DNA from: an uncultured delta proteobacterium
GTDB taxonomy: Bacteria; Desulfobacterota; Binatia; Binatales; Binataceae
Length of the DNA stretch: 64,000 bases
Direction: 5' to 3'
Assembly (NCBI GenBank): GCA_963806485.1
Contig: CAWDXY010000001.1
Coordinates: 192,599 to 256,598 of the forward strand
A program made the translations under genes and the position numbers. This document shows positions 17,471-27,449 of the stretch, piece after piece (within the stretch, counting starts at the first letter, position 1; each line of letters starts with the position of its first letter). Below the pieces are notes generated by a model. It was not told the origin of the DNA. It did no database searches and saw only the letters and a list, made by a program, of their open reading frames with translations.

Positions 17471-18853
17471 CTATTGCGCGCTCGGGGCGTCGGCCGCCTT
17501 CTCCATTTCCGAGGTTTTGATCTTCGCGTCGCTCTGGTTCGCGACCGCGACCACGATCATCGCATCGGGATGCAGATATTTTTTCGCAACCGCCAGCACG
17601 TCGTCCTTCGTGACCGATCCGATCAGCTTCGGATACTGCTCCGCGTAGTCGAGCCCGAGCCCATAGAACTCGATCTGGATCATGAAGCTGGCAATCGCGC
17701 TCTGCCGCTCGATGTTCAGTGGGAAGCTGCCGATCAGATATTGTTTCGCGCCATCCAGCTCGGCGTCGCTGACCGGCTTTTCCTGGATCTCGCGAAGCTG
17801 CTGCAGGATCAAATCGATCGCTTCGGTCGAACTCTGGTTTTTGGTTTGAAGGCCGATGGTGAACGCGCCCTGGAACTTGCCGGGCTCGAAACCGCTGTTG
17901 ACCGAGTAGGCGAGCCCGTGCGCGCTTCGAACCACCTTCACCAGCCGCGAGGAAAATCCACCACCGCCAAGGATGTAGTTCATCACCTTGAGCCGGTAAA
18001 AGTCGGGATTCGAACGCGTCACTCCGCCGGAACCCATGATGATGTTGGCTTGCACGACGCTTCGATCGATCAGCTTCACGTGCAGACCCGGCGCAACGTT
18101 GATTGGCGGCGGGTCGGCTTGCGGCGTGACGGTTCCGGAGAGGCCTGCCAGCGTTTTTTCAAGTGATACTTTAACTTCGTCCGCGCTCACATCGCCGGCC
18201 ACCGCGATGATCGATCCGCCCAGCTTGTAGTAGTCGTGATAAAATCCGCGCACGTCGTCATTCGTCAGCTTGGCGACCGAGTCCGACGAGCCCGCGCCGG
18301 GATGCCCGTATGGTGAGTCGCCGAACAGGTCCTTCACGAACTCCACATCTGCGGTGTAGCCCGGCTGCTCTTCCGCCGATTTGATTTCCGCGACCTGCTC
18401 GGCGCGTTTGCGCTCGATATCGGCGTCGCGCAGTCCGGGCTGTATCAGGATGCCCGCCAGCAAATCGAGCGTCTCGCCCTGGTACTTTTTCAGCGTCGTC
18501 ATCGAGGCGGTCGAATAGTCGCGCCCGGCCGACACGTCGACCGAGCTGCCCATGAAATCGACTTTCTGATCGAACTCCGGCGCGGTGAGATCCTTGGTGC
18601 CTTGCGAAAGGCATCGCCCCGTCAACTCGGCCAATCCCTCCTTGCCCTTGGGATCGCGACGCGTGCCGGCGTCGAACTCGATCATCATCGTGACCATCGG
18701 CAACTGATGCTCTTCCGAAACCAGCAGGGTAGCGCCGTTGCTGAGCGTCATCTTCTTGATATCGAGCGCGTGCGACGGCGTGGCCGCGAGCACCACCGCC
18801 GCGATTGCCGCGACGCCCGCAAACATTTTCAGTCGATTCTTCGTGCCGCTCAT
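17471..18853 (-). CDS. M16 family peptidase, non-catalytic subunit
   Basis: Signal peptide; lacks HxxEH (ELTGR instead); ILGGGGFSSRL...VR..HGLAY C-domain. Confidence 0.88.
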   Translation of the reverse strand: MSGTKNRLKMFAGVAAIAAVVLAATPSHALDIKKMTLSNGATLLVSEEHQLPMVTMMIEFDAGTRRDPKGKEGLAELTGRCLSQGTKDLTAPEFDQKVDFMGSSVDVSAGRDYSTASMTTLKKYQGETLDLLAGILIQPGLRDADIERKRAEQVAEIKSAEEQPGYTADVEFVKDLFGDSPYGHPGAGSSDSVAKLTNDDVRGFYHDYYKLGGSIIAVAGDVSADEVKVSLEKTLAGLSGTVTPQADPPPINVAPGLHVKLIDRSVVQANIIMGSGGVTRSNPDFYRLKVMNYILGGGGFSSRLVKVVRSAHGLAYSVNSGFEPGKFQGAFTIGLQTKNQSSTEAIDLILQQLREIQEKPVSDAELDGAKQYLIGSFPLNIERQSAIASFMIQIEFYGLGLDYAEQYPKLIGSVTKDDVLAVAKKYLHPDAMIVVAVANQSDAKIKTSEMEKAADAPSAQ

Positions 18854-20235
18854 CGCAATTCTCCGCCGCTCAGCCCGGCGCCTCCATGCGGCAGGACGCC
18901 GGTCGGCACCAGCACGCCTTCGGTCATGTTGGACGCGACCAGGTAAGTCTTCGCGACCCGCTGCACATCGGCTGCGGTCACCTTGTCGATTCCGTCGATA
19001 TACTTATCGACCAAATGGTAGTCGCCGAGCATTTCGTACATTCCGAGCATCTCGGCCTCGCGCATAACCGAGTCCTGCCCGAACACGAACTGCGCCTGCT
19101 CGAGATTCTTGGCCTTCTGCAATTCCTCCGCGCCCACCGGAGCATCGCGCATCGCGGCGAGTTCCTTCTCGACTTCGGCCTGGGTGTCCGCCGCCTTGAT
19201 GCCGGGCCGCATCTGCGCCGACACGATGAACAATCCGGGATCGAACGAGCTCATCTCGTAGCCGGCGCCGATGTCGACCACCATCTGCTTTTCCACGACC
19301 ATCTTTTGGTACAGCCGCGAGCTCTGCCCGTCGCTAAGAATTTCCGACGCCACTTCGAGCGCGTAACTGTCGGGGCTGAAGATATTCGGCACGTGATACG
19401 CCTCTTCGAACGCCGGCAGATTCGCCGCGTGCTGCAGTTCGACGCGCCGGGTCCCTGTTTGCGGCGGTTCCAGGTCCGTCATCGGCGGCGGCTTGGGGCC
19501 GTTCTTGATTCCCGCGAATGCCTCGCTGATTTGCTTGAGCACCTGGTCGCCGTTGAAATCGCCGACCGCCACGATCAGCGCGTTTTGCGGCGAGTAATAA
19601 ATCTTGTGATACGCCATCGCGTCGGCCAGCGTCAGCCCGTCGACGTCGTGGAACCATCCGATCACCGGCCAGTGGTACGGATGCGCCACGTAGGCCTGCG
19701 CGCGCACCATCTCGTCGAGCGCGTCCTCCGGATTGTCGTCGGTGCGCAGGCGCCGCTCCTCGAGCACGACGTGCTTCTCCTTGTCGAACTCCTTGGGCTC
19801 GAAGTTGGCCATCCGATCGGCTTCGAGCGAAATGGGCACGTCGAGTTTATCCTTGCTGATCGTCTCGAAATAATCCGTGAAGTCCTCCTCGGTGAACGCG
19901 TTATCCTCGCCGCCGTGCTGCTGGATTATTTGCGAGAACTCTTCGGGGCCCAGCTTCTTGGTGCCCTTGAACATCAGATGCTCGCACAGATGCGACAGTC
20001 CGGTCTTGCCGAATTGCTCGTTGCGCGAGCCGACGCGATAGAAGACGTTGAAGGTCGCCAGCGGCGCCTTGTGATTTTCCAGCACCAGCACTCTGAGCCC
20101 GTTGGGCAGCGTTTGAGCCTTGACCGCGTCCGCCATTCCCGCGCGCGCGGGAGCCGAAACGGCCAGGCATAGAAGGGTACCGAGCGCCGCCACAGGGACG
20201 AGACGGCGATGATTGCCAAAAATCGCGATGCGCAT
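18850..20235 (-). CDS. M16 family zinc peptidase, catalytic subunit
   Basis: VGSRNE...GLSHLCEHLMFKGT (HxxEH), NAFT, VLEERR; signal peptide. Confidence 0.92.
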   Translation of the reverse strand: MRIAIFGNHRRLVPVAALGTLLCLAVSAPARAGMADAVKAQTLPNGLRVLVLENHKAPLATFNVFYRVGSRNEQFGKTGLSHLCEHLMFKGTKKLGPEEFSQIIQQHGGEDNAFTEEDFTDYFETISKDKLDVPISLEADRMANFEPKEFDKEKHVVLEERRLRTDDNPEDALDEMVRAQAYVAHPYHWPVIGWFHDVDGLTLADAMAYHKIYYSPQNALIVAVGDFNGDQVLKQISEAFAGIKNGPKPPPMTDLEPPQTGTRRVELQHAANLPAFEEAYHVPNIFSPDSYALEVASEILSDGQSSRLYQKMVVEKQMVVDIGAGYEMSSFDPGLFIVSAQMRPGIKAADTQAEVEKELAAMRDAPVGAEELQKAKNLEQAQFVFGQDSVMREAEMLGMYEMLGDYHLVDKYIDGIDKVTAADVQRVAKTYLVASNMTEGVLVPTGVLPHGGAGLSGGELR

Positions 20236-20318: not shown

Positions 20319-20672
20319 GTCATCCTGACTGAAGCGAGCAACGGGCGTCTCGCAGAACTCCCTTAAACCGGTCCCCCTTCCCTCGAGGGAGTTCTTTAAT
20401 CCGGTCCCCCTTCCCGCGCGGGAAGGGGTTAGGGGTTAGGTTCCGCGCGCGCCGCTATGTTCGGCTGCGGTACCAAATTACCATCGCCCGCTCTGCGGGA
20501 GAGGGAACGGCGTCCGCGCCTGGGGTGAGGGAAAGGGGGTGAGGGGGATAGGACAGCAAGGTTCCTACAACCGGTAATTCCCCTTCCCTCGAGGGAAGGG
20601 GTTAGGGGTTAGGTTCCGCGCGCCGCGCGCCCTCCGTCATCCCGACGACCCGAGCAACAAGACGGGATCTGG
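20319..20672. repeat. Mosaic REP-like repeat cluster
   Basis: ccccttccc-N-gggaaggggttaggggttaggttcc at ~20407 and ~20580 (partial copy ~20373); gggggtgagggggataggacagc at ~20535; gtcatcc...-type palindromes at 20319 and 20636. Confidence 0.8.
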
Positions 20673-20688
20673 CCTCCGGACAGCTCGC

Positions 20689-20847
20689 GCGAACCAGAAC
20701 GTTCGTCCGTCATCTGCGCGACTATGTTTCGGCCGCGACCGCCTCGTCCATTTCCATGATGCTCCTGCGCGGACCCTTGTAAGGGATGCAGCCGATGATC
20801 GATTGCCAAGTCTGCACGCCGCCGCTTTTTGGTTTAAGCAAGATGCC
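20689..20847 (-). pseudogene. Relic of an AbrB/MazE-type antitoxin C-terminus plus the first codons of a VapC-like PIN toxin
   Basis: 20847-20722 reads GILLKPKSGGVQTWQSIIGCIPYKGPRRSIMEMDEAVAAET*, lacking the N-terminal AbrB region; 20706-20689 reads TNVLVR (cf. VapC DTNVLVR). Confidence 0.55.
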
Positions 20848-20855
20848 CTAACACT

Positions 20856-21755
20856 TTAGGCCTGCAGGGCCGCCAGTATCTGATTTCCGAACTGCGCCGC
20901 TCCCTGGACGTTTGGATGTCCCGCCGACGCGCGGTAGCAGATTTCGCGATCGAGGATTTGTAAGGGATCGGGGTGAGCGATATCGCACAGCGGATGCCGC
21001 GCGGCGGCGACGGGATCCTGCGGGCTCATGTCGTCGTCGAGAGTTACACCCCAGAGCAGTGATGTGCCTGGAACAAACGCGGAGTTGGCGTCCGTAAATC
21101 CCGATGAAACGAAAGCGATTCTCGGGTCATTCGCATCCACGATGGCCCGTTCGAGTTGTTGTGTGGAATCGGTGAAAAATGCCTCGCACCGATCCAGCAC
21201 CGGGTTGATGAAGTCGAGATCTTCGGCGAGAAACGGGGGCACAGCGATTCCGAAAAGGCTGATCAGCTTGATCACTCCGAGCGGATCGCTCTCTGCACTT
21301 AGAATTGGGTAGTAGCCCGTGACCAGAATTTTGCAAGTCGGCTTTGAGAATTTCGCGATAACTTTCTTAAGCAATACCAACATTCCATCGTGGCACGCAT
21401 GTATAACCCTGGCGTCGAGCGGCGGAATCATGGCGAACGGATTGAGGATTGATGCGACGCCGACATCATTGATCCCACCGTCCATAAGCACGAGGTCCAC
21501 CGTATCTGGAGAATTGGCATAGCTGTCGCACTGTTCAATGATGGAAAGACGCGAAGCAGGCACCTCCCCCACTTGCGGAGTTCCGCTGACGCCGGTCGCG
21601 CCGATGACCGCACCCGAGTGAGCCAGGGATTCAAGCGTAGCTCCGGGATGCGTGGGCAAAAGCGCCTGTTGCACCAGCCAATCGAACTTCTCGTTTGGGA
21701 GCAGACCCTGGCCCCAGATAATCGAATCACCAATTGAAACAATTCTGAAAGCCAC
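20856..21755 (-). CDS. SGNH/GDSL hydrolase
   Basis: GDSIIWGQG (block I), AHSGA, GGINDV (block III), GHPN (block V). Confidence 0.85.
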   Translation of the reverse strand: MAFRIVSIGDSIIWGQGLLPNEKFDWLVQQALLPTHPGATLESLAHSGAVIGATGVSGTPQVGEVPASRLSIIEQCDSYANSPDTVDLVLMDGGINDVGVASILNPFAMIPPLDARVIHACHDGMLVLLKKVIAKFSKPTCKILVTGYYPILSAESDPLGVIKLISLFGIAVPPFLAEDLDFINPVLDRCEAFFTDSTQQLERAIVDANDPRIAFVSSGFTDANSAFVPGTSLLWGVTLDDDMSPQDPVAAARHPLCDIAHPDPLQILDREICYRASAGHPNVQGAAQFGNQILAALQA

Positions 21756-22058
21756 GGTCCCTCCTCATCTCGCCGCGACTATACTCATTGCGCGCAACGA
21801 CGTTGTCGCCGGTGCAAAACTGACCAGGGTCGCCGATTGAAAAGTCATCCCCAGCGCGGAAAGCTTTGCCCGTTGATCCTGTAGTCGAGCAAATAATCCG
21901 CCGGCGACGCACGAACCTGGTTTCGCTGATCTTTCTGGTCCTGTTCATAACTGTCGTCGTCCATCCACTTGTTCTGCCCATACGTGGTCTCAGGCCCGGC
22001 AGTCAAGAACATCGCGAACGCCCGCTATCGTCGTGAGCTGGTTGCTCTGCCTTCTGTT

Positions 22059-22145
22059 CCCCCTTTCTACTGTGGAAAGGGGTGAGGGGGATAGGACAGC
22101 GACGCGCCCGGATGACTTCTTCTGGTTCCCCTTCCCGCTCGGGAA
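22059..22145. repeat. Bipartite REP-like unit interrupted by the IS; continues at 25110-25137
   Basis: ccccctttctactgtggaaaggggtgagggggataggacagc, spacer, ttccccttcccgctcgggaa, [IS], ctcgggaaggggttaggggttaggttcc. Confidence 0.85.
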
Positions 22146-22161
22146 GGGGATTATGTTGGGC

Positions 22162-22190
22162 TTGACACTCAGCCTCAGAAAGCTTATATT
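22162..22190 (+). promoter_or_regulatory. Sigma70 promoter of the transposase, with the -35 inside the left TIR
   Basis: TTGACA (22162-22167), 17-nt spacer, TATATT (22185-22190); ATG follows after 6 nt with no Shine-Dalgarno. Confidence 0.75.
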
Positions 22191-22196
22191 GTACGC

Positions 22197-23117
22197 ATGA
22201 ACAAGAAAGTTGAAGCTGGCAAGCCGCTGACCACTCAACCCTCGATCACCCTCGCTCAACTGATGAAACAGTTCAGCGATGAAACCGCGTGCAAAACGCT
22301 GTTGCGCGATCTTCGCTGGCCGGATGGCGTCCAGTGTCCGCGTTGCAAGAACAAGCAGGTTTACACGCTCAAGTCGCGTCCGTTCCATTGGGTCTGCAAG
22401 GTCTGCGGCGGGCGCAACGGCTACCGATTCAGCGTCATCACCAAGACGATTTTCGAGAATACGAACTATCCGCTTTCGACTTGGTTTCAGGTCATCTACC
22501 TGATGACTCAAAGCAAGAAGGGAATCAGCGCCCTTCAAATCCATCGGCAGATTGGATCGGGCGACTACCGCACGGCGTGGTACATGGTGATGCGTATTCG
22601 CGCCGCGATGAAGGATGACGGACTGGCTAAGCTGCTCGGCACGGTCGAGATTGACGAAACCTACGTTGGCGGGAAAGAGAAAAATCGTCATTGGGATAAA
22701 AAGCAGGGCGGACGCGGCACCGCTGGCAAGATTCCGGTTATCGGTGCGATCTCCCGCAAGGGCAACGTAGTCTGCAAAATGATTGAACAGACCGATACCG
22801 AAACACTGACTCGATTCGTCCGCGATACCGTGAGCGACAAAGTGAATTTGGTCGCGACCGATGAGCACTCCGGCTATCGCTATCTCAAGTGGGCGATGCC
22901 GCATGAAGTGGTCAAGCACAGCGAGAATCAGTACGTTCGCGGTGAGGTCCATACGAACAACATCGAATCGTTCTGGTCGCTCTTGAAGCGTGGCGTGGTC
23001 GGCACCTACCACAACGTGAGCAAGAAATATCTGCCGCTGTATCTCGCGGAGTTTCAGTATCGGTTCAACAATCGCGACAACAAGAATATTTTCTTCGACG
23101 TGATAGCAGGATGCTGA
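22197..23117 (+). CDS. IS1595 family (ISXO2-like) DDE transposase
   Basis: RWPDGVQCPRC...CKVC zinc ribbon, KKGISALQI HTH, VEIDETYVGG, ATDE..GY, HTNNIESFWS.LKR, YLAEFQYRFNNR. Confidence 0.96.
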   Translation: MNKKVEAGKPLTTQPSITLAQLMKQFSDETACKTLLRDLRWPDGVQCPRCKNKQVYTLKSRPFHWVCKVCGGRNGYRFSVITKTIFENTNYPLSTWFQVIYLMTQSKKGISALQIHRQIGSGDYRTAWYMVMRIRAAMKDDGLAKLLGTVEIDETYVGGKEKNRHWDKKQGGRGTAGKIPVIGAISRKGNVVCKMIEQTDTETLTRFVRDTVSDKVNLVATDEHSGYRYLKWAMPHEVVKHSENQYVRGEVHTNNIESFWSLLKRGVVGTYHNVSKKYLPLYLAEFQYRFNNRDNKNIFFDVIAGC

Positions 23118-23217
23118 GGTCAGCCCGCTGGCGGAAGCCTCAGCCAGATAAGGCCAGTCACCTGATTGTGGACAGGGGCGGACAATTCCGATTGCCGTTC
23201 CCGCGAAGGGTAGTACT

Positions 23218-23367
23218 ATGCCGAAAGCGAAGCCCATTTCACTCCATCCGCTAACTTTCCATGAAGCGCTCAAGCACCTGGTTCGCGTTGATCCTGATAG
23301 CGTCGGCATTACTTCTAAGCGGCGTAAAAAGCCCAAGCGCAGCATCAAATCAAACAAGGAACGATGA
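23218..23367 (+). CDS. Small basic protein (49 aa) downstream of the transposase, below the ORF-track cutoff
   Basis: MPKAKPISLHPLTFHEALKHLVRVDPDSVGITSKRRKKPKRSIKSNKER*; recalled as resembling short ORFs that follow IS1595 transposases (not verified). Confidence 0.5.
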   Translation: MPKAKPISLHPLTFHEALKHLVRVDPDSVGITSKRRKKPKRSIKSNKER

Positions 23368-24211
23368 ACATCAACGCCAGCCCGCAGAACAAAAAGACAA
23401 AACCCAAGAGCAACAGATCGTACTCGTACCATCCCCTGCGTACCAAGCCGCAATTCTCGAAGCGCTCCGCGCCATAGTGAACGAAGAGGTTTCCCGCCAA
23501 AAACAAGAGCACGCCGACTATAAACGCTGGAATACTCCAACCTTCTGGTTCGGCACGATCGGACTTCTCGTAGTCGGCGCTCTCTATACGTTCTTCGCTG
23601 GTTGGCAGTTGGTCGTAATCCGTCGCCAACACAAAATGTTCATGCTCAGCCAGCGGGCGCAAGTAATTCTCGGACGCACAGATGGGAAGCTGATGGAGTT
23701 GATTCCACCAAAAGTGGGCGAACGATTGATGGTTAAAATGCTCTTCCTGAACAGCGGTGGCGTAGCCGCCGAACAATTCTTCGTTCACAGCATGATTACT
23801 GTTCTCGCTGGAATGCCAGCGGGTATGACACAGGGCAAATCTATGCAACCACAACCTTGGCGTCAGTGGGTCGAGCACGGACTTTCCCGTTGGGGCGCGG
23901 CTCCAATTGCCGCCAATGCGCTGCGAATAGAAATTGCGTATTCGCAGAACCAATTGACGCACGACGACATCATGTACAACTTTGAGGCCGGACGACACGT
24001 AGCGGTTAGTGGCAAGTTCCAATATTTTGATGGTTTCGGACAGCCTGAATATCGGACGTTTAGTGCTCACTACTCCCCTGAGTTGGGCGATTTTGTCGAG
24101 GCCACCGAAGTCTGGGAACAAGGTGGCTATTCGCTCAACCCGAAGAAGCTGGGGTTCGGGATGACCTCCATCGCGCCCAAAGAAACCAACGAGGCCAAGC
24201 AGCGCAAATAG
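23261..24211 (+). CDS. IS passenger: hypothetical membrane protein
   Basis: Signal-like N-terminus and TM segment WFGTIGLLVVGALYTFFAGWQL; lies within the TIRs. Confidence 0.65.
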   Translation: MKRSSTWFALILIASALLLSGVKSPSAASNQTRNDEHQRQPAEQKDKTQEQQIVLVPSPAYQAAILEALRAIVNEEVSRQKQEHADYKRWNTPTFWFGTIGLLVVGALYTFFAGWQLVVIRRQHKMFMLSQRAQVILGRTDGKLMELIPPKVGERLMVKMLFLNSGGVAAEQFFVHSMITVLAGMPAGMTQGKSMQPQPWRQWVEHGLSRWGAAPIAANALRIEIAYSQNQLTHDDIMYNFEAGRHVAVSGKFQYFDGFGQPEYRTFSAHYSPELGDFVEATEVWEQGGYSLNPKKLGFGMTSIAPKETNEAKQRK

Positions 24212-24234
24212 AAGTGCGAACGACCCAGAAAACA

Positions 24235-24906
24235 TTAAAGACGCTCCTTACCGCAGAGTCGTAAAAATAGATTGTCTAAGCTGGCCTTTGCGTCTTGCTG
24301 TACTAGTTGAGCCCGACCGACATCGTCATACGCCATCTTTTGGTCGTTTGAGTTGTATGGCGAACGAGGTATAGCCTTACCCGGATCGTTCGGAGCTGGT
24401 TGTGTCACTAGATAGTACCTGTCCCATGCGGCAGATAACAAAACGTTGGCGTTGTCTAATATTTCCTGCGCTTTTGCGATGTCGATAAAGTCTTGTTCGC
24501 GAAGTGGCTGAGGTTCTACCGGTGTGGAAATCGGTGTAGCAGCAGGGGCGCGTAATCGAGTGTTTTCAGCCCTGAGCCGTGAGTTGTCGTGTTTTAGCGA
24601 TTCGTTCTGTCGTTGCAAAGCCAGATCGATAGCTGATGGCGTAGATTTAGAAACTGGCGATGCTGCCACTAACATCGGGGCTGACACATCTGGAGACCGA
24701 AAAACAATTGGCGAACGCCATTCCACAGGTGCGAAGAAAATCAGCGATGCTACACCGCTGATGAACAGCAATGCAGCAACGCCGCCCCAAGCACCTTTCG
24801 CGCGTTTAGTTTGAGGTGGCCACACCGTAATGAAAATCCCGACAGCCAGACCGATAGCCGTAGCTGCAAATCCCGCAACGAGTGTGAACATAGGCAATGA
24901 CCTCAA
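24235..24906 (-). CDS. IS passenger: hypothetical two-TM protein with a coiled coil
   Basis: Two hydrophobic helices, then LQRQNESLKHDNSRLRAENTRLR; convergent with 23261-24211. Confidence 0.6.
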   Translation of the reverse strand: MRSLPMFTLVAGFAATAIGLAVGIFITVWPPQTKRAKGAWGGVAALLFISGVASLIFFAPVEWRSPIVFRSPDVSAPMLVAASPVSKSTPSAIDLALQRQNESLKHDNSRLRAENTRLRAPAATPISTPVEPQPLREQDFIDIAKAQEILDNANVLLSAAWDRYYLVTQPAPNDPGKAIPRSPYNSNDQKMAYDDVGRAQLVQQDAKASLDNLFLRLCGKERL

Positions 24907-25204
24907 TGTGCGCGCTGACCGGAGGCTTGAGCAGGTCGTCGCTGCCCCCCGCCAGCGACACTGATCCCCTTGTTTCCCCTGTAAATAGAGTAGCGCCAGC
25001 GACGCGGAAAGAGGACCGATCCGTGCGCTGGCGCTGGACTTTAGAACACCGGCCTGTCACCCATAACGTGCCCGCAGGCAGGTCGGGTGTCAAGCCCAAC
25101 ATAATCCCCCTCGGGAAGGGGTTAGGGGTTAGGTTCCTCTCCTCACCCAAACTTCTAACAGGGACGAAGTCCCGCATCCCGCGGCGGTGCCGATTCTCTT
25201 TTCA

Positions 25205-25261
25205 CTGGGTGCAGGGGTCACCCCTGCCCAAGGAAGCGTGAAACCCACGGCGGGTTTCACA
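25205..25261. repeat. Double-hairpin palindromic repeat (family A), copy 2 (inverted)
   Basis: First 30 nt identical to the reverse complement of 3796-3825; second hairpin shows compensatory changes. Confidence 0.8.
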
Positions 25262-25271
25262 TACAATCAAG

Positions 25272-25307
25272 TTCCTCCGCGCGGGAAGGGATTAGGGGTT
25301 AGGTTCC
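25272..25307. repeat. Degenerate REP copy
   Basis: ttcctccgcgcgggaagggattaggggttaggttcc; same family as 20407 and 20580. Confidence 0.7.
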
Positions 25308-25367
25308 CCGCACCGCCGCAGTCAAATTTGCTCGATGCACCCGTTCTTGCCAGAATCGATTACCACG

Positions 25368-27449
25368 ATGCCCGAAATCCCCGAGAAACCTCAGGACCTC
25401 TTCGAAATCAAGGGCGTGCTGACCAAGTTCATGCGGATGCTGTTTCCGCTTGAGTTCCGCATCGACTCGCTCGCGAACAGCGGCCCGATGCTGCCGTTTC
25501 ACTACCCGCTGCTGCCCGGCGAAATGATCTATCTACCCGAGAAGCTCGAGCCGTTCGGCACTCGCGGCGACGCCTACATTTATTATTTCGTGACCACCGC
25601 CCATCTGGCGGCGCGCCACGACTTCGGCACCTTCAAGCTCAAGCTAGCCGACATCGCGGGTTTCGAAGAGCGCGGCGAGACCGGCGTCGAGGCGATCGAC
25701 AGCTTCGTCGCGTCGTTCGACGACCCCGGTCTCGCCGGCGCCCTGATGCGGCTGGCGGAGTCGGCGCGCATCGACGCCGAACTTGCACGGCGTTATCGTG
25801 GACTCGCGCCGCGCATCGCGGGACTCAATCGCTCGCTCCTTGCGCGGCTCCATCCCGAGTCGCTCAGCACGATGCTGGTGCGGGCGGCGCTCGATCTCGA
25901 GGCGACCGGCGAAGCGCTCGACTCCCCGTTGGTGCTGATGGCGGCGCATCATTTCGCGCCCGTTCGTGAGCGCGGCGCCGACGTGATGACCAGCGTCCGC
26001 CAGGTCGGCGCGCTCTACAATTGGCTCCAGGAGCTGATTCGGCAGGCGCGCGAACGCGGCGAAGGCGATCCGCTCACCGAAGAAGAAGCGGAGCGCATGC
26101 GCAACGACCTGATCAAAGGAATGAAAGGCTCTGAATCGCAGACCGCGAGCGAAGGCGAAGACGGCGAGAATGGCGACGGCGGCGGCGAGCCCGATCAGAA
26201 CGTGCAGATGGACGTCTCGGGCAAGCAATCCAAGGGCGGACAGGGCCGGGCGCTCTCGCCCGAGGAATTGCGCAAGCTCATCGAGCAGGGCGCCGAGATC
26301 AAACCCTCGCAAGGCGACGGCAGCGCCGAGGGCGACGGCATGTACCTGACCCAGCTGACCAACAAGCAGCTAAGCGAGCTCGAGCAGATGCGCGAGCAGC
26401 TCGGCGAAGTCGGCTCCGTCACCGGGCAGGGACGCCTGATGATCGGCCGTGGGCGCCAGGACTCGTACTATGCGTACGACGAATGGGATTACGTGCTGAA
26501 CGACTACCGCCGCAACTGGTGCCGGCTGCGCGAAATTCCGCTGACCGGCGACGAGGGCGATTTCTACGAGAACACGCTGCTCCGTTACGCCGAGATGCTG
26601 CCCGGCGTGCGCCGCAACTTCCAGCGCATCCGGCCAGCCTCATATCGAATGGTCCGCGGGCTCGAGGACGGCGAGGAAATCGACCTCGACCGCACTATCG
26701 AGGCGCGAGTGGCGCGCCTGATGGGCGAGACCCCCGACGGCCGCTTCTACAAGGCTCGCAAGAAAGAAGCGCGCGACGTCGCCACTCTGTTCCTGCTCGA
26801 CATGTCGGCCTCGACCGACGAGCCCGTGCATCGCGAGCCGCGCAAGCATACCGATGACGACGACGCCGACGATTGGATGAAGGCATGGCAGCGCCGCCCG
26901 CAAACCGCCAATCGTCCGCGCCGCATCATCGACGTGAACAAGGAAGCGCTGGTCATCATGGCGCAGGCGCTCGAGGAAATCGGCGACGCCTACGCAATCA
27001 TGGGCTTCTCCGGACACGGCCGCGACAACGTCGAGTTCTACGTCATCAAGGAATTCGATCAGGAATTGAGCGACGAGGTGAAAGCGCGCATCGGTTCGGT
27101 CGAGCCCAAGCGCTCAACCCGGATGGGCGCGGCGATTCGCCACGTGCGCGAGAAATTCAAGGACGTCTCCTCGCGCGCCAAGCACATGATCCTGCTGAGC
27201 GACGGCTTCCCGCAGGATTTCGACTACGGCCACGACCGCCGCTCGAACGCCTACGGCATCCAGGACACGATGGTCGCGCTCAAGGAACTCGAGCTCGCCG
27301 GCGTCCTGCCATTCTGCATAACGGTGGACAAAACCGGCCACGACTACCTGCGCCAGATGTGCCAGTCCTCGCGCTACCTGGTAATCGAGGACATAGCCTC
27401 CCTACCGCGCCAGCTACCAAAAATCTACGAGCAAGTAATCCGCTGGTAA
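25368..27449 (+). CDS. NorD/CbbO-like von Willebrand factor A protein
   Basis: YDEWDY...YR.NWC, DGEEIDLD, MIDAS DMSAS, TRMGAAIRH, LLSDGFPQD, PFCITVD, LP.IY; alternative start at 25335. Confidence 0.88.
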   Translation: MPEIPEKPQDLFEIKGVLTKFMRMLFPLEFRIDSLANSGPMLPFHYPLLPGEMIYLPEKLEPFGTRGDAYIYYFVTTAHLAARHDFGTFKLKLADIAGFEERGETGVEAIDSFVASFDDPGLAGALMRLAESARIDAELARRYRGLAPRIAGLNRSLLARLHPESLSTMLVRAALDLEATGEALDSPLVLMAAHHFAPVRERGADVMTSVRQVGALYNWLQELIRQARERGEGDPLTEEEAERMRNDLIKGMKGSESQTASEGEDGENGDGGGEPDQNVQMDVSGKQSKGGQGRALSPEELRKLIEQGAEIKPSQGDGSAEGDGMYLTQLTNKQLSELEQMREQLGEVGSVTGQGRLMIGRGRQDSYYAYDEWDYVLNDYRRNWCRLREIPLTGDEGDFYENTLLRYAEMLPGVRRNFQRIRPASYRMVRGLEDGEEIDLDRTIEARVARLMGETPDGRFYKARKKEARDVATLFLLDMSASTDEPVHREPRKHTDDDDADDWMKAWQRRPQTANRPRRIIDVNKEALVIMAQALEEIGDAYAIMGFSGHGRDNVEFYVIKEFDQELSDEVKARIGSVEPKRSTRMGAAIRHVREKFKDVSSRAKHMILLSDGFPQDFDYGHDRRSNAYGIQDTMVALKELELAGVLPFCITVDKTGHDYLRQMCQSSRYLVIEDIASLPRQLPKIYEQVIRW

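Follow-up and report, generated by a model that had tools for sequence, protein, structure and literature searches.

The window, a stretch of 64,000 nucleotides, carries an insertion sequence of the IS1595 family at 22146-25109. The element comprises 2,964 bp, lies in an intergenic site and is flanked by a target duplication of 8 bp (ctcgggaa, 22138-22145 and 25110-25117). Its ends are perfect over 23 bp: the left terminal inverted repeat (22146-22168, plus strand) reads GGGGATTATGTTGGGCTTGACAC, and the right one (25087-25109, minus strand) is its exact reverse complement, with identity at 23 of 23 positions. Based on sequence and fold, the first four G of the left repeat close a hairpin at 22128-22149. 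A consensus scan places a putative promoter (TTGACA-17 nt-TATATT, 11 of 12 consensus matches) at 22162-22190 on the plus strand; its -35 hexamer falls within the left inverted repeat, and it ends 6 nt upstream of the transposase ATG. A terminator-like site is found at the same end of the element.

The transposase gene (22197-23117, plus strand) encodes 306 aa with an N-terminal zinc ribbon (PF12760, 2e-11, residues 28-71) and an IS1595-type DDE domain (PF12762, 2.8e-41, profile positions 1-153 of 153), and scores 220.5 bits against the NCBIfam model NF033547, whose cut-off is 75. The DDE domain, the zinc ribbon and inverted repeats with an 8-bp duplication, all expected of the IS1595 family, are thus present, and the Pfam and NCBIfam matches uphold the family assignment that an earlier sequence-only reading of this DNA had made. 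The tip of the element, GGGGATTAT, fits GGnnATTAT, the end consensus reported for the ISNwi1-type subgroup (ISfinder/TnPedia); tip and internal passenger genes both agree with that subgroup.

About 220-240 nt 3' of the transposase stop are conserved in close relatives, as judged by blastn and tblastn, including a small basic ORF of 49 aa (23218-23367, plus strand). Consequently, this stretch and its ORF were assigned to the core of the element and not to the cargo. A profile search found the 49-aa ORF in 15 of 75 copies, while Pfam and NCBIfam gave no match to it. It was considered as target selector and rejected, since it occurs across the target classes R1, R2, R3, R5, T4, T6 and other. The cargo itself spans about 1.75 kb with two ORFs and is unique to the present copy among the copies compared. 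The first ORF (23261-24211, plus strand) encodes up to 316 aa, its start being uncertain, with a hydrophobic N-terminus and one more hydrophobic segment; its similarity to the ORFs that occupy this place in two relatives, L122 and L124, is weak (28-33% over 123-194 aa). The second (24235-24906, minus strand), which has no relative among the loci compared, encodes up to 223 aa and contains two hydrophobic segments. Neither passenger ORF matched Pfam or NCBIfam. In relatives the cargo is variable and includes restriction-type genes.

The interrupted repeat

The element splits a repeat, here called R1, which consists of a C-rich arm, a loop of 2-5 nt, GGGAAGGGG and a TTAGGGGTTAGG tail. Its left part (22124-22145, plus strand) extends from the C-rich arm through the loop to the sixth base of the G-rich arm, while 25110-25137 (plus strand) holds the right copy of the duplication (25110-25117) and the remainder of the repeat, GGGG, the TTAGGGGTTAGG tail and ttcc. 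The sequence-only reading had proposed that removing 22146-25109 and one copy of the duplication restores a repeat, and this was borne out: the restored 40-mer (22126-22145 joined to 25118-25137) occurs exactly 13 times in the 5.03-Mb host genome (G000), 28 times at up to one mismatch and 56 times at up to three. The two neighbouring copies named in that reading, at about 20407 and 20580, indeed belong to the family; a sequence search delimits them as intact copies at 20406-20444 and 20578-20617 (both plus strand). A degenerate copy at 25277-25307 (plus strand) has kept its tail, while its palindrome is poor (-0.8 kcal/mol). Reading of the sequence further revealed a hairpin repeat of a second type, R2, at 22057-22095 (plus strand; CCCCCTTTC-loop-GGAAAGGGG with a TGAGGGGGATAGG tail). 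Together with a spacer, R2 and R1 form a composite unit of about 90 nt that recurs in the host genome and its relatives: if 21300-22137 is used as query, its bases 746-838 match many places in both.

All repeat copies in the window lie between genes. The 12-base R1 tail has 141 matches in the host genome at up to one mismatch, nearly all of them with a hairpin, and thus exceeds the 100 copies of a short imperfect palindrome per genome that are asked of a REP. However, a REP in the strict sense requires a REP-associated tyrosine transposase, and a search for PF01797 (Y1_Tnp) gave no match in the host genome, which is 97% complete; of 14 control genomes, 6 were positive. Consequently, we term the repeats REP-like.

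The left junction of the element (22128-22149) is a perfect palindrome with a 10-bp stem. Its single-stranded form reaches -10.9 kcal/mol on folding, a stability attained by none of 200 shuffles, whereas the intact neighbour copy folds at -9.8 kcal/mol. The right junction folds weakly, at -4.3 kcal/mol, which 45 of 200 shuffles equalled. Hence the proposal that the end of the element rebuilds the hairpin holds for the left junction and fails for the right one. The rebuilding follows from the tips of the element being the same bases that flank the duplication (CCCN / NGGG).

The locus was further compared with that of relatives. Among 40 other genomes of the genus, the left flank (21300-22137) was matched only by its last 90 or so bases, which belong to the repeats. 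Synteny was inspected in the five closest genomes: the M16-peptidase gene adjoins the VWA gene directly in three of them (G009, G003 and G016), and at this locus the flanks of the element are absent from all five, hence it offers no empty site. A segment of about 4.9 kb that contains the element and is bounded by two repeat copies is missing in relatives. In the four best runs of public reads on 21500-25700, the shorter side of every joint across the element comprised 25 bases or fewer, and in most joints other letters stood between the two sides, meaning that the joints stem from other repeat copies and not from the present locus.

Targets of related copies

To place the insertion in context, 41 genomes were searched, of which 26 gave matches; 71 loci were fetched and 76 copies with a transposase at least 51% identical were examined. 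Four of these reside in the host genome; the other 72 come from relatives, almost all of which belong to the same genus, Candidatus Binatus. Both junctions were delimited for 64 copies and at most one for the other 12, among them L093, which was classed from candidate ends only. Copy ends were determined by a tip-pattern search, and for 22 loci they were set by hand from the search output. Matches with less than 200 aligned residues were excluded, such as a split gene in G021 (locus L130), while the decayed copy of the host genome was reinstated manually. The counts exclude three copies from a clade with 36-39% identity. Apart from the class defined by the motif rule, target classes were labelled by eye. 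A duplication of 7-10 bp with up to two mismatches flanks 59 of the 64 two-sided copies, most relatives having 8 bp and some 9. As a check of independence, outer flanks were compared, and only six pairs of copies proved similar, two of them in the repeat class.

According to the motif rule, 36 of the 76 copies sit in hairpin repeats with a C-run and a G-run (30 of the 64 two-sided copies and 6 of the other 12). The same rule covers 0.63% of the 8-bp sites in the host genome and 1.2% in the fetched loci. With so small a share of the host genome, a chance hit is unlikely even for the single present copy. For the whole set, the probability of at least 36 hits is 3e-48 at a background of 1.2% and 6e-24 at an assumed 6%, values that overstate significance because the copies are related. 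A broader hairpin rule, covering 4.3% of the genome, applies to 27 of the 64 two-sided copies, and a second collection placed 7 of 11 further Binatus-type copies in such hairpins.

In the host genome all four copies lie in hairpin repeats. Two further elements, whose transposases are 59% and 63% identical to the present one and whose ends differ, occupy the same R1 position, and each of their duplications includes the loop of its own repeat copy; the fourth, decayed copy sits in the second hairpin type. In addition, one solo IS end abuts the same half-repeat, and one copy is flanked by an imperfect repeat of 14 bp rather than 8 bp. A 99%-identical copy in another species, which must be recent given this identity, is likewise found in a repeat.

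The remaining 40 of the 76 copies lie outside these hairpins, mostly in other recurrent short sequences. Even among the eight closest copies (at least 88% identical), two are found in ordinary sequence (L033 and L035), and if the second collection is counted, copies at least 79% identical comprise 12 of 17 in hairpins and 5 of 17 outside. The target class follows the transposase lineage: a quick tree of the transposases requires 36 changes of class against a shuffled mean of 52.2, and none of 200 shuffles was as low, a contrast whose significance is again overstated by the relatedness of the copies. Thus the preference for hairpin repeats is strong but not exclusive. Scattering of other copies over random sites had been set beforehand as the outcome speaking against targeting, and it was not what we found, neither in the survey nor in the second collection. 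The stricter claim that insertion is REP-specific had to be abandoned, since more than half of the copies lie elsewhere and their target class tracks the lineage.

Choice of the insertion point

The insertions share a fixed register: the duplication is flanked by CCCN and NGGG, which are the element's own terminal bases. In the pooled half-sites, the positions -4, -3 and -2 outside the duplication are C in 83, 98 and 90% of cases. The element is inserted in either orientation (8 versus 7). In the main repeat type, 15 insertions fall on the tail side and 2 on the far side, and one could not be assigned (binomial p = 0.002, overstated for related copies); one of the tail-side targets, L031, lacks the G-run of the far arm. 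In the third hairpin type all six insertions are on the side away from the tail (L088 being read by eye), and they are explained by the CCC/GGG rule and not by likeness to the tail.

The sequence-only reading had suggested that mimicry between end and target guides the element. In support of this, the IS tip and the displaced 8-mer are most alike at the true register (mean best 4.6 of 8, compared with 2.1-3.7 at 24 shifted registers). However, the shared stretch is only about 4-5 bases long, or as many as about 10 on the tail-bearing side of the main repeat, and no such peak was found in the other target classes; mimicry thus cannot be a general targeting device. The likeness consists mostly of the G-run, within a repeat that is G-rich already. 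Co-variation of IS tips with target flanks was looked for and not established: GGCG-tipped elements sit in cccg/N8/cggg hairpins in 7 of 8 cases, yet the C is out of line. A linear motif, CCC-N5-6-G[GA]AAGGGG, has 255 sites in the host genome, 220 of them in hairpin repeats, and on sequence grounds it would serve equally well as mimicry or structure.

Direct observations comprise the structure of the element, the enrichment in hairpins, the fixed register, the use of both orientations and the inheritance of the target class along the transposase tree. In our view, a cargo-carrying IS1595 element probably entered one of about 140 REP-like hairpins by DDE transposition, with a choice of site that was not left to chance. 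An 8-bp staggered cut would have opened one R1 copy. Within the genus, the element and its relatives favour hairpins with C-run and G-run arms, and their cuts leave the duplication of 8-9 bp between CCCN and NGGG. Since the element starts with GGGG and ends with CCCC, every new junction again reads CCC-N8-GGG, and where the C-rich arm is left intact the hairpin is restored in full. The transposase may read the duplex target through contacts resembling those on its own tips, and the strand displaced at each cut (...CCC-3') would look like the transposon end that replaces it (...CCCC-3'). In the main type of repeat, the likeness of the repeat tail GGGGTTAGG to the tip GGGGATTAGG or GGGGATTATG might add affinity. 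Landing in repeats would presumably spare genes, and the restored hairpin with the T-rich tip may act as terminator upstream of the transposase promoter. The term landing pads for passenger genes, used in the sequence-only reading, would describe such repeats rather than assign them a function. One might speculate further that IS1595 transposases read the bases of their own tips on both sides of the 8-bp stagger, so that insertions regenerate targets, with a terminator-like stem on hairpins, and lineages retarget via small changes of transposase and tips, with C/G-run hairpins as targets in the present lineage and other, operator-like boxes in its sisters; this broader proposal is possible, albeit doubtful.

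Alternatively, the transposase might recognise DNA structure and not a sequence that resembles its tips. Its target would then be a cruciform extruded from the duplex or a hairpin formed by the lagging-strand template, with C- and G-runs mattering only as stable stems. This tentative idea, which we consider rather unlikely, fits the 27 two-sided sites that are good palindromes, the use of four different hairpin families, a family with a loop of 8 whose duplication is exactly the loop, and the 14-bp flanking repeat, which spans exactly the outer C-run to G-run of its hairpin. However, the R1 duplication is off-centre (the loop plus 5-6 arm bases) and biased 15:2 toward the tail, which is unexpected of a symmetric structure. 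Moreover, L031 was targeted without a G-run in its far arm, in the two non-repeat targets used by the closest relatives nothing more than ...GGAA/(A)GGG or ...AGAA/GG is left, and the linear motif already explains why 220 of 255 sites are in repeats.

A common origin, in which the repeats are footprints or miniature derivatives of IS ends, would turn the association into something other than targeting. The tail with its G-run, GGGGTTAGG, does resemble the element tips GGGGATTAGG, and a PF01797 transposase is missing from the 97% complete host genome while control genomes were positive. Nevertheless, we regard this origin as improbable: each element duplicates the loop of its own repeat copy, excision yields a sequence of which 13 identical solo copies exist, one repeat type hosts elements with four different tips, no inverted copies of IS tips bound the repeats, and the 23-bp end at up to five mismatches finds only six sites in the genome. 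It is very improbable, too, that insertion is random and copies merely survive in harmless repeat DNA. While the repeats are intergenic and presumably neutral and the genome survey shows old copies, survival cannot set the register to the base, with C in 98% of half-sites at -3, nor does it fit three host-genome elements with such divergent transposases (59% and 63% identical to the present one) at the same repeat position. In addition, P is still 6e-24 if a factor of ten is allowed for restriction to intergenic DNA, the short sequences preferred differ between lineages, and the recent, 99%-identical copy in another species is in a repeat as well. Spread among repeats by homologous recombination or gene conversion instead of transposition appears least credible and can practically be dismissed; the repeats offer many short homologies and the 4.9-kb segment is bounded by two repeat copies, but the direct duplications of 8-9 bp, copy-specific and matching the local loop, are a mark of transposition, and nearly all two-sided copies (59 of 64) carry a duplication of 7-10 bp with up to two mismatches.

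Comparison with known systems

Homing to REP hairpins is known in other families and is apparently new for IS1595, whose members often carry passenger genes; REP-homing ISs known so far use another chemistry or another stagger. The case stems from Candidatus Binatus, a little-studied soil genus, and offers a concrete target rule, CCCN/N8-9/NGGG, which equals the element's own tips. If causal, this rule would make available a small DDE transposase whose landing sites can be predicted and spare genes, and would explain how variable cargo, restriction-type genes included, spreads without damage to the host. If not, it is still a well-documented case of repeat-directed insertion. Reading of the own tips, if true, would be a simple and portable basis for site-selective DDE transposition and would explain why cargo is parked in the gene-free repeats of an uncultured soil phylum.

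Within IS1595, the ISNwi1-type group is reportedly described by Siguier, Gagnevin and Chandler in 2009 as carrying passenger genes ("transporter IS"). The present element resembles this group in its zinc-ribbon and DDE transposase of about 300 aa, short inverted repeats, 8-bp duplication and GGnnATTAT tip, as well as in the additional genes located beyond the transposase gene, toward the far end. We know of no preference of the ISNwi1-type group for hairpin repeats as target, and a search of the open-access literature found no report of REP or hairpin targeting for IS1595; databases name the homologues just "IS1595 family transposase". IS30-type elements target sequences resembling their own inverted repeats. 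If our inference is right, the present transposase would be similarly drawn to a target resembling its own end, although it belongs to a different family and the putative likeness spans 4-10 bases. IS1016 is now placed in IS1595 as well.

This last element is weakly REP-associated (2/17 and 1/3) in a table of Tobes and Pareja (2006; PMC1525189). The same source lists REP targeting for IS1397, ISKpn1 and ISPsy8 (IS3 family), for IS621, ISPpu9, ISPpu10 and ISPa11 (IS110 family) and for ISRm22 (IS4 family). It thereby confirms the IS3 and IS110 families that the sequence-only reading had named, whereas that list was incomplete, as five families are on record there (IS3, IS110, IS4, IS5 and IS256) and not two. 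In the "type 1 association" of these authors all copies lie in REP, while here 36 of 76 do. Their demand for the same point of insertion agrees with our observations, given that the duplication is bounded by C-run and G-run and 15 of 17 assignable R1 insertions fall in the same half. The REP-targeting ISs of that survey share with the present group one fixed point in a palindromic intergenic repeat, a point common to several unrelated elements, and occasional copies with non-matching flanking repeats. The present group differs from them by another transposase family and by a duplication of 8-9 bp (the loop and part of an arm) compared with 0-6 bp, and, unlike them, it uses both orientations and four repeat types, with a selectivity that holds for about half of the copies instead of all.

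The element and the repeat it interrupts

The element at window positions 22146-25109 adds a new member to an established IS family. It is 2,964 bp long, carries perfect terminal inverted repeats of 23 bp and is bounded by the 8-bp direct repeat ctcgggaa (22138-22145 and 25110-25117). Its transposase gene (22197-23117, 306 aa) matches the full Pfam profile DDE_Tnp_IS1595 (2.8e-41) as well as Zn_ribbon_IS1595 (2e-11), and scores 220.5 bits against NCBIfam NF033547, whose cut-off is 75. A promoter-like site (22162-22190, 11 of 12 matches) has its -35 hexamer inside the left inverted repeat and ends 6 nt upstream of the transposase ATG. Since a -10-like hexamer precedes the ATG by 6 nt and no ribosome-binding site is visible in 22185-22199, the transposase mRNA may be leaderless. 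A small basic ORF (23218-23367) directly follows the transposase gene, and two larger cargo ORFs (23261-24211, + strand; 24235-24906, - strand), for which Pfam and NCBIfam gave no family match, lie within about 1.75 kb. The source genome G000, to which the window belongs (G000:C1:192599-256598), comprises 5.03 Mb in four contigs with 61% G+C.

The sequence-only reading placed this insertion in a REP hairpin, which is borne out by the perfect ends, by the duplication and by the restored target. Flanks joined by script minus one copy of the duplication gave a 40-mer with 13 exact occurrences in the genome, 28 at up to one mismatch and 56 at up to three. This repeat, R1, consists of a C-rich arm (CCCCTTCCC), a loop of 2-5 nt, GGGAAGGGG and the tail TTAGGGGTTAGG, the tail motif having 141 matches at up to one mismatch; the copies named in that reading lie at 20406-20444 and 20578-20617. 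Further hairpin types in G000 are R2 (CCCCCTTTCC/GGAAAGGGGG), R3 (CCCCTCTCC/GGGAGAGGGG) and R5 (CCTC[GT]CCCG, an 8-nt loop, CGGG[AC]GAGG), while a composite of about 90 nt, made of an R2 copy, a spacer and the R1 copy interrupted here, recurs in G000 and in relatives. Since no Y1 (RAYT) transposase was found, we term these repeats REP-like, as they are without the usual RAYT partner. Beyond the element, 25166-25306 holds the palindrome GTGAAACCCACGGCGGGTTTCAC and a degenerate repeat. In four soil runs its contig depths add up to 449-1,529, compared to single digits for most of the remaining stretch; the communities sampled there thus contain these short repeats in very large numbers.

At the left junction (22128-22149) the first four G of the element stand in for the GGGG of the repeat, which makes the palindrome perfect. 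Single-stranded, this junction has a folding energy of -10.9 kcal/mol, which none of 200 shuffles equalled (intact copy: -9.8), whereas the right junction reaches only -4.3, as 45 of 200 shuffles did. Consequently, the proposal that the IS end rebuilds the hairpin holds for one junction, not both.

Additional copies in G000 were sought by tblastn and with the 23-bp end. Another R1 copy hosts a 2,581-bp element in opposite orientation (transposase 59% identical, tip GGGGATTAGG) with an 8-bp duplication at the same repeat position, and a third hosts a 2,074-bp element (63% identical, tip GGCGATTATG), whose duplication measures 9 bp and is displaced by one base. A solo IS end directly borders an R1 half-repeat, again at the same position, and a decayed 2,400-bp copy of the element itself, its gene frameshifted, occupies an R2-type hairpin inside a 46-bp tandem array. 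Each duplication contains the loop of its own repeat copy, so these are separate transposition events. The decayed copy (C4:1229412-1231811) is flanked by a 14-bp imperfect direct repeat with one mismatch instead of 8 bp, reflecting either an unusual stagger across the whole inner hairpin or a recombination hybrid of two insertions. Elsewhere in G000 there are two more transposase genes, which belong to a distant clade and are 36% identical.

Target classes among related copies

A six-frame search of 41 genomes gave matches in 26, nearly all of the same genus (23 of 24), Candidatus Binatus. For published genomes, 71 stretches around every match with 51% identity or more were fetched and the ends then delimited; two unpublished genomes (G019, G024) support none of the claims. 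There were 78 matches with at least 200 aligned residues, 75 of them in the clade of at least 51% identity, which together with the decayed copy, added by hand, makes 76. Both junctions were delimited in 64 copies and one junction in 11 of the other 12; the copy at locus L093, with none delimited, was classed from candidate ends only.

If one hairpin arm within 12 nt of the duplication is required, 36 of the 76 copies lie in hairpins (30 of the 64 with two junctions and 6 of the other 12), while the same rule applies to 0.63% of 8-bp sites in G000 and to 1.2% in the fetched stretches, junctions included. The probability of at least 36 such copies is 3e-48 at 1.2% and 6e-24 at 6%, a background assumed so as to allow for intergenic-only insertion, though both values are too small because the elements themselves are kin. 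Outer flanks are unrelated save for six pairs, two of these in the repeat class, and the copies are thus separate insertions. A second hairpin rule (stem of 9, up to one mismatch), which covers 4.3% of the genome, is also satisfied by 27 of the 64. Hence the other copies do not sit at random, non-REP sites, the outcome named in advance as speaking against targeting. However, the REP-specific insertion that had been proposed survives as a strong preference and not as exclusivity, since 40 copies lie outside hairpins.

A second collection of 25 loci, nine of which repeated loci already counted and four of which gave no clear placement, added 11 further Binatus-type copies, seven in hairpins (L113, L116, L120, L123, L127, L130, L134) and four outside (L121, L122, L124, L128). 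Two alphaproteobacterial relatives, 54-55% identical, are sited in ordinary sequence. At E <= 1e-30 public data contain some 7,900 homologues at least, including sequences about 70% identical that carry the label Nitrospira. Among the eight copies closest to the element (at least 88% identical), six are in hairpins and two outside; at 79% identity or more, the second collection included, the count is 12 of 17. Locus L123 is a 4.5-kb contig labelled Terriglobales, in which the end of an element with a 79% identical transposase abuts an R5-type, Binatus-like hairpin; it is either a mis-binned contig or a transfer between phyla.

The 40 non-hairpin copies were sorted by eye. Eighteen of the 76 copies sit between TTCTCCTGAAC and a GTTTCACGTGAAAC box (L051, L055, L066, L067, L071, L077, L078, L083, L084, L086, L089, L090, L094, L098, L099 and others), which is a second specific target of the IS group. 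Three further recurrent sequences host 6, 6 and 2 copies, weak CCCC-N8-GGGG sites host two, and six copies are found in unrelated sequence. The target classes cluster on a quick maximum-likelihood transposase tree, where they require 36 changes; shuffling gave a mean of 52.2, and none of 200 shuffles came down to 36. Some clades are wholly of one class. Hairpin targeting is therefore a preference in which lineages differ. The GTTTCACGTGAAAC box is itself a perfect 14-bp palindrome with 20 exact occurrences in G000 (e.g., C1:363629 and C1:1349748), often paired 66 or about 137 nt apart, and looks like an operator or leader motif.

Register, end likeness and target recognition

Where a copy lies in a hairpin, C-runs and G-runs delimit the duplication. 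With the half-sites of 30 sites pooled from both sides, C occupies positions -4 to -2 outside the duplication at 83, 98 and 90%, and T its first two bases at 68 and 67%, so the target reads CCCN/TT....AA/NGGG. Since the elements start with GG(G/C/T)G and their other end is the complement, every junction again reads CCC-N8-GGG. The element's first 8 bases match the displaced 8 at a mean of 4.6 positions (best side) at the true register, compared to 2.1-3.7 at 24 shifted registers. No such peak was found in the other target classes, and the suggested mimicry between element end and target is accordingly confined to the hairpin class.

A bias also exists as to the side of insertion. On R1, 15 insertions are on the tail side, two on the far side and one is unclear (p = 0.002); at the tail side the displaced GGGGTTAGG and the tips GGGGATTAGG and GGGGATTATG are alike across some 10 bases if one gap is allowed, and the far arm of one tail-side target (locus L031) is without the G-run. 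On R3 the tail-distal side received all six insertions (L088 read by eye); in no other register would CCC and GGG flank both sides. Elements lie either way round (8 vs. 7). Taken together, insertion is of the DDE type with a stagger of 8-9 bp, prefers hairpin repeats strongly and in a lineage-specific manner, and keeps to a fixed register, in which the flanking bases are those of the element's own termini, with no orientation bias. At locus L049 the 8-bp duplication directly abuts, in the right flank, a remnant of about 14 bases of another IS tip (GGGGATTGTGTTG...), which suggests that an old IS junction is reusable as target.

We infer that the transposase contacts the target beside each cut much as it does its own tips. 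The displaced ...CCC-3' strand would then mimic the incoming ...CCCC-3' end, and on R1 the IR-like tail might add affinity. Alternatively, recognition of an extruded hairpin could underlie the repeat preference, and our data cannot separate this from reading of the sequence. The preference is explicable by a linear motif: 220 of the 255 CCC-N5-6-G[GA]AAGGGG sites in G000 fall within hairpin repeats, so sequence reading alone would explain it. Whichever is recognized, a putative consequence of landing in repeats is that genes are spared. Transcription might be affected too, for the restored stem, together with the ATTATGTT that follows it, is scored as terminator-like and immediately precedes the transposase promoter. 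As a general design this is excluded, since the repeats hold elements facing either way.

Cargo, neighborhood and known systems

In close relatives, the 220-240 nt or so past the transposase stop and the first 32 codons of the small basic ORF are 70-94% identical, while the remaining cargo is unique to the element described here. A profile search detected the small ORF in 15 of 75 copies, among close relatives and a second clade and in several target classes; it showed no family match and no link to target class. Another species holds, at L031 (G009:C5) and within a different copy of the repeat, an element with a 99% identical transposase. It measures 3,186 bp, compared to 2,964 bp, and differs entirely in cargo past the first 240 nt or so after the gene, which implies that the elements have spread recently and exchange cargo fast. 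Ten large cargo ORFs from relatives, searched against Pfam, comprised a GmrSD_N restriction-type protein (L074:3684-4775, 4.7e-28), two DUF3800 proteins (L070:3184-3999, L057:6582-7379) and seven without match.

On one side the element is flanked by a GDSL-lipase-like gene (20856-21755, - strand), on the other by a VWA-domain gene (25335-27449, + strand). In the close relatives G009, G003 and G016 the VWA gene directly adjoins an M16-peptidase gene (in the window 18850-20235), while in G000 about 4.9 kb (20445-25276) separate the two. This segment, comprising the GDSL-lipase-like gene, repeats and the IS, is bounded by R1 copies (20406-20444 and 25277-25307). Given the direct adjacency in the relatives, it is an island either gained in G000 or lost in the relatives, perhaps by way of the repeats. 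Because the whole segment is missing there, no orthologous empty site was demonstrable by synteny in relatives, nor was one in public short contigs.

IS1016 is now placed in the IS1595 family. No description of hairpin targeting by IS1595 elements came up in our literature search. REP-specific insertion is on record for members of the IS3, IS110, IS4, IS256 and IS5 families, and in the excerpted text of that survey IS1595 is absent from the families with this trait (Tobes and Pareja, PMC1525189). Its table gives 2/17 and 1/3 IS1016 copies near REPs (PMC1525189). While repeat-directed insertion as such is already known, a repeat-directed, tip-matching target choice is apparently new in the IS1595 family.
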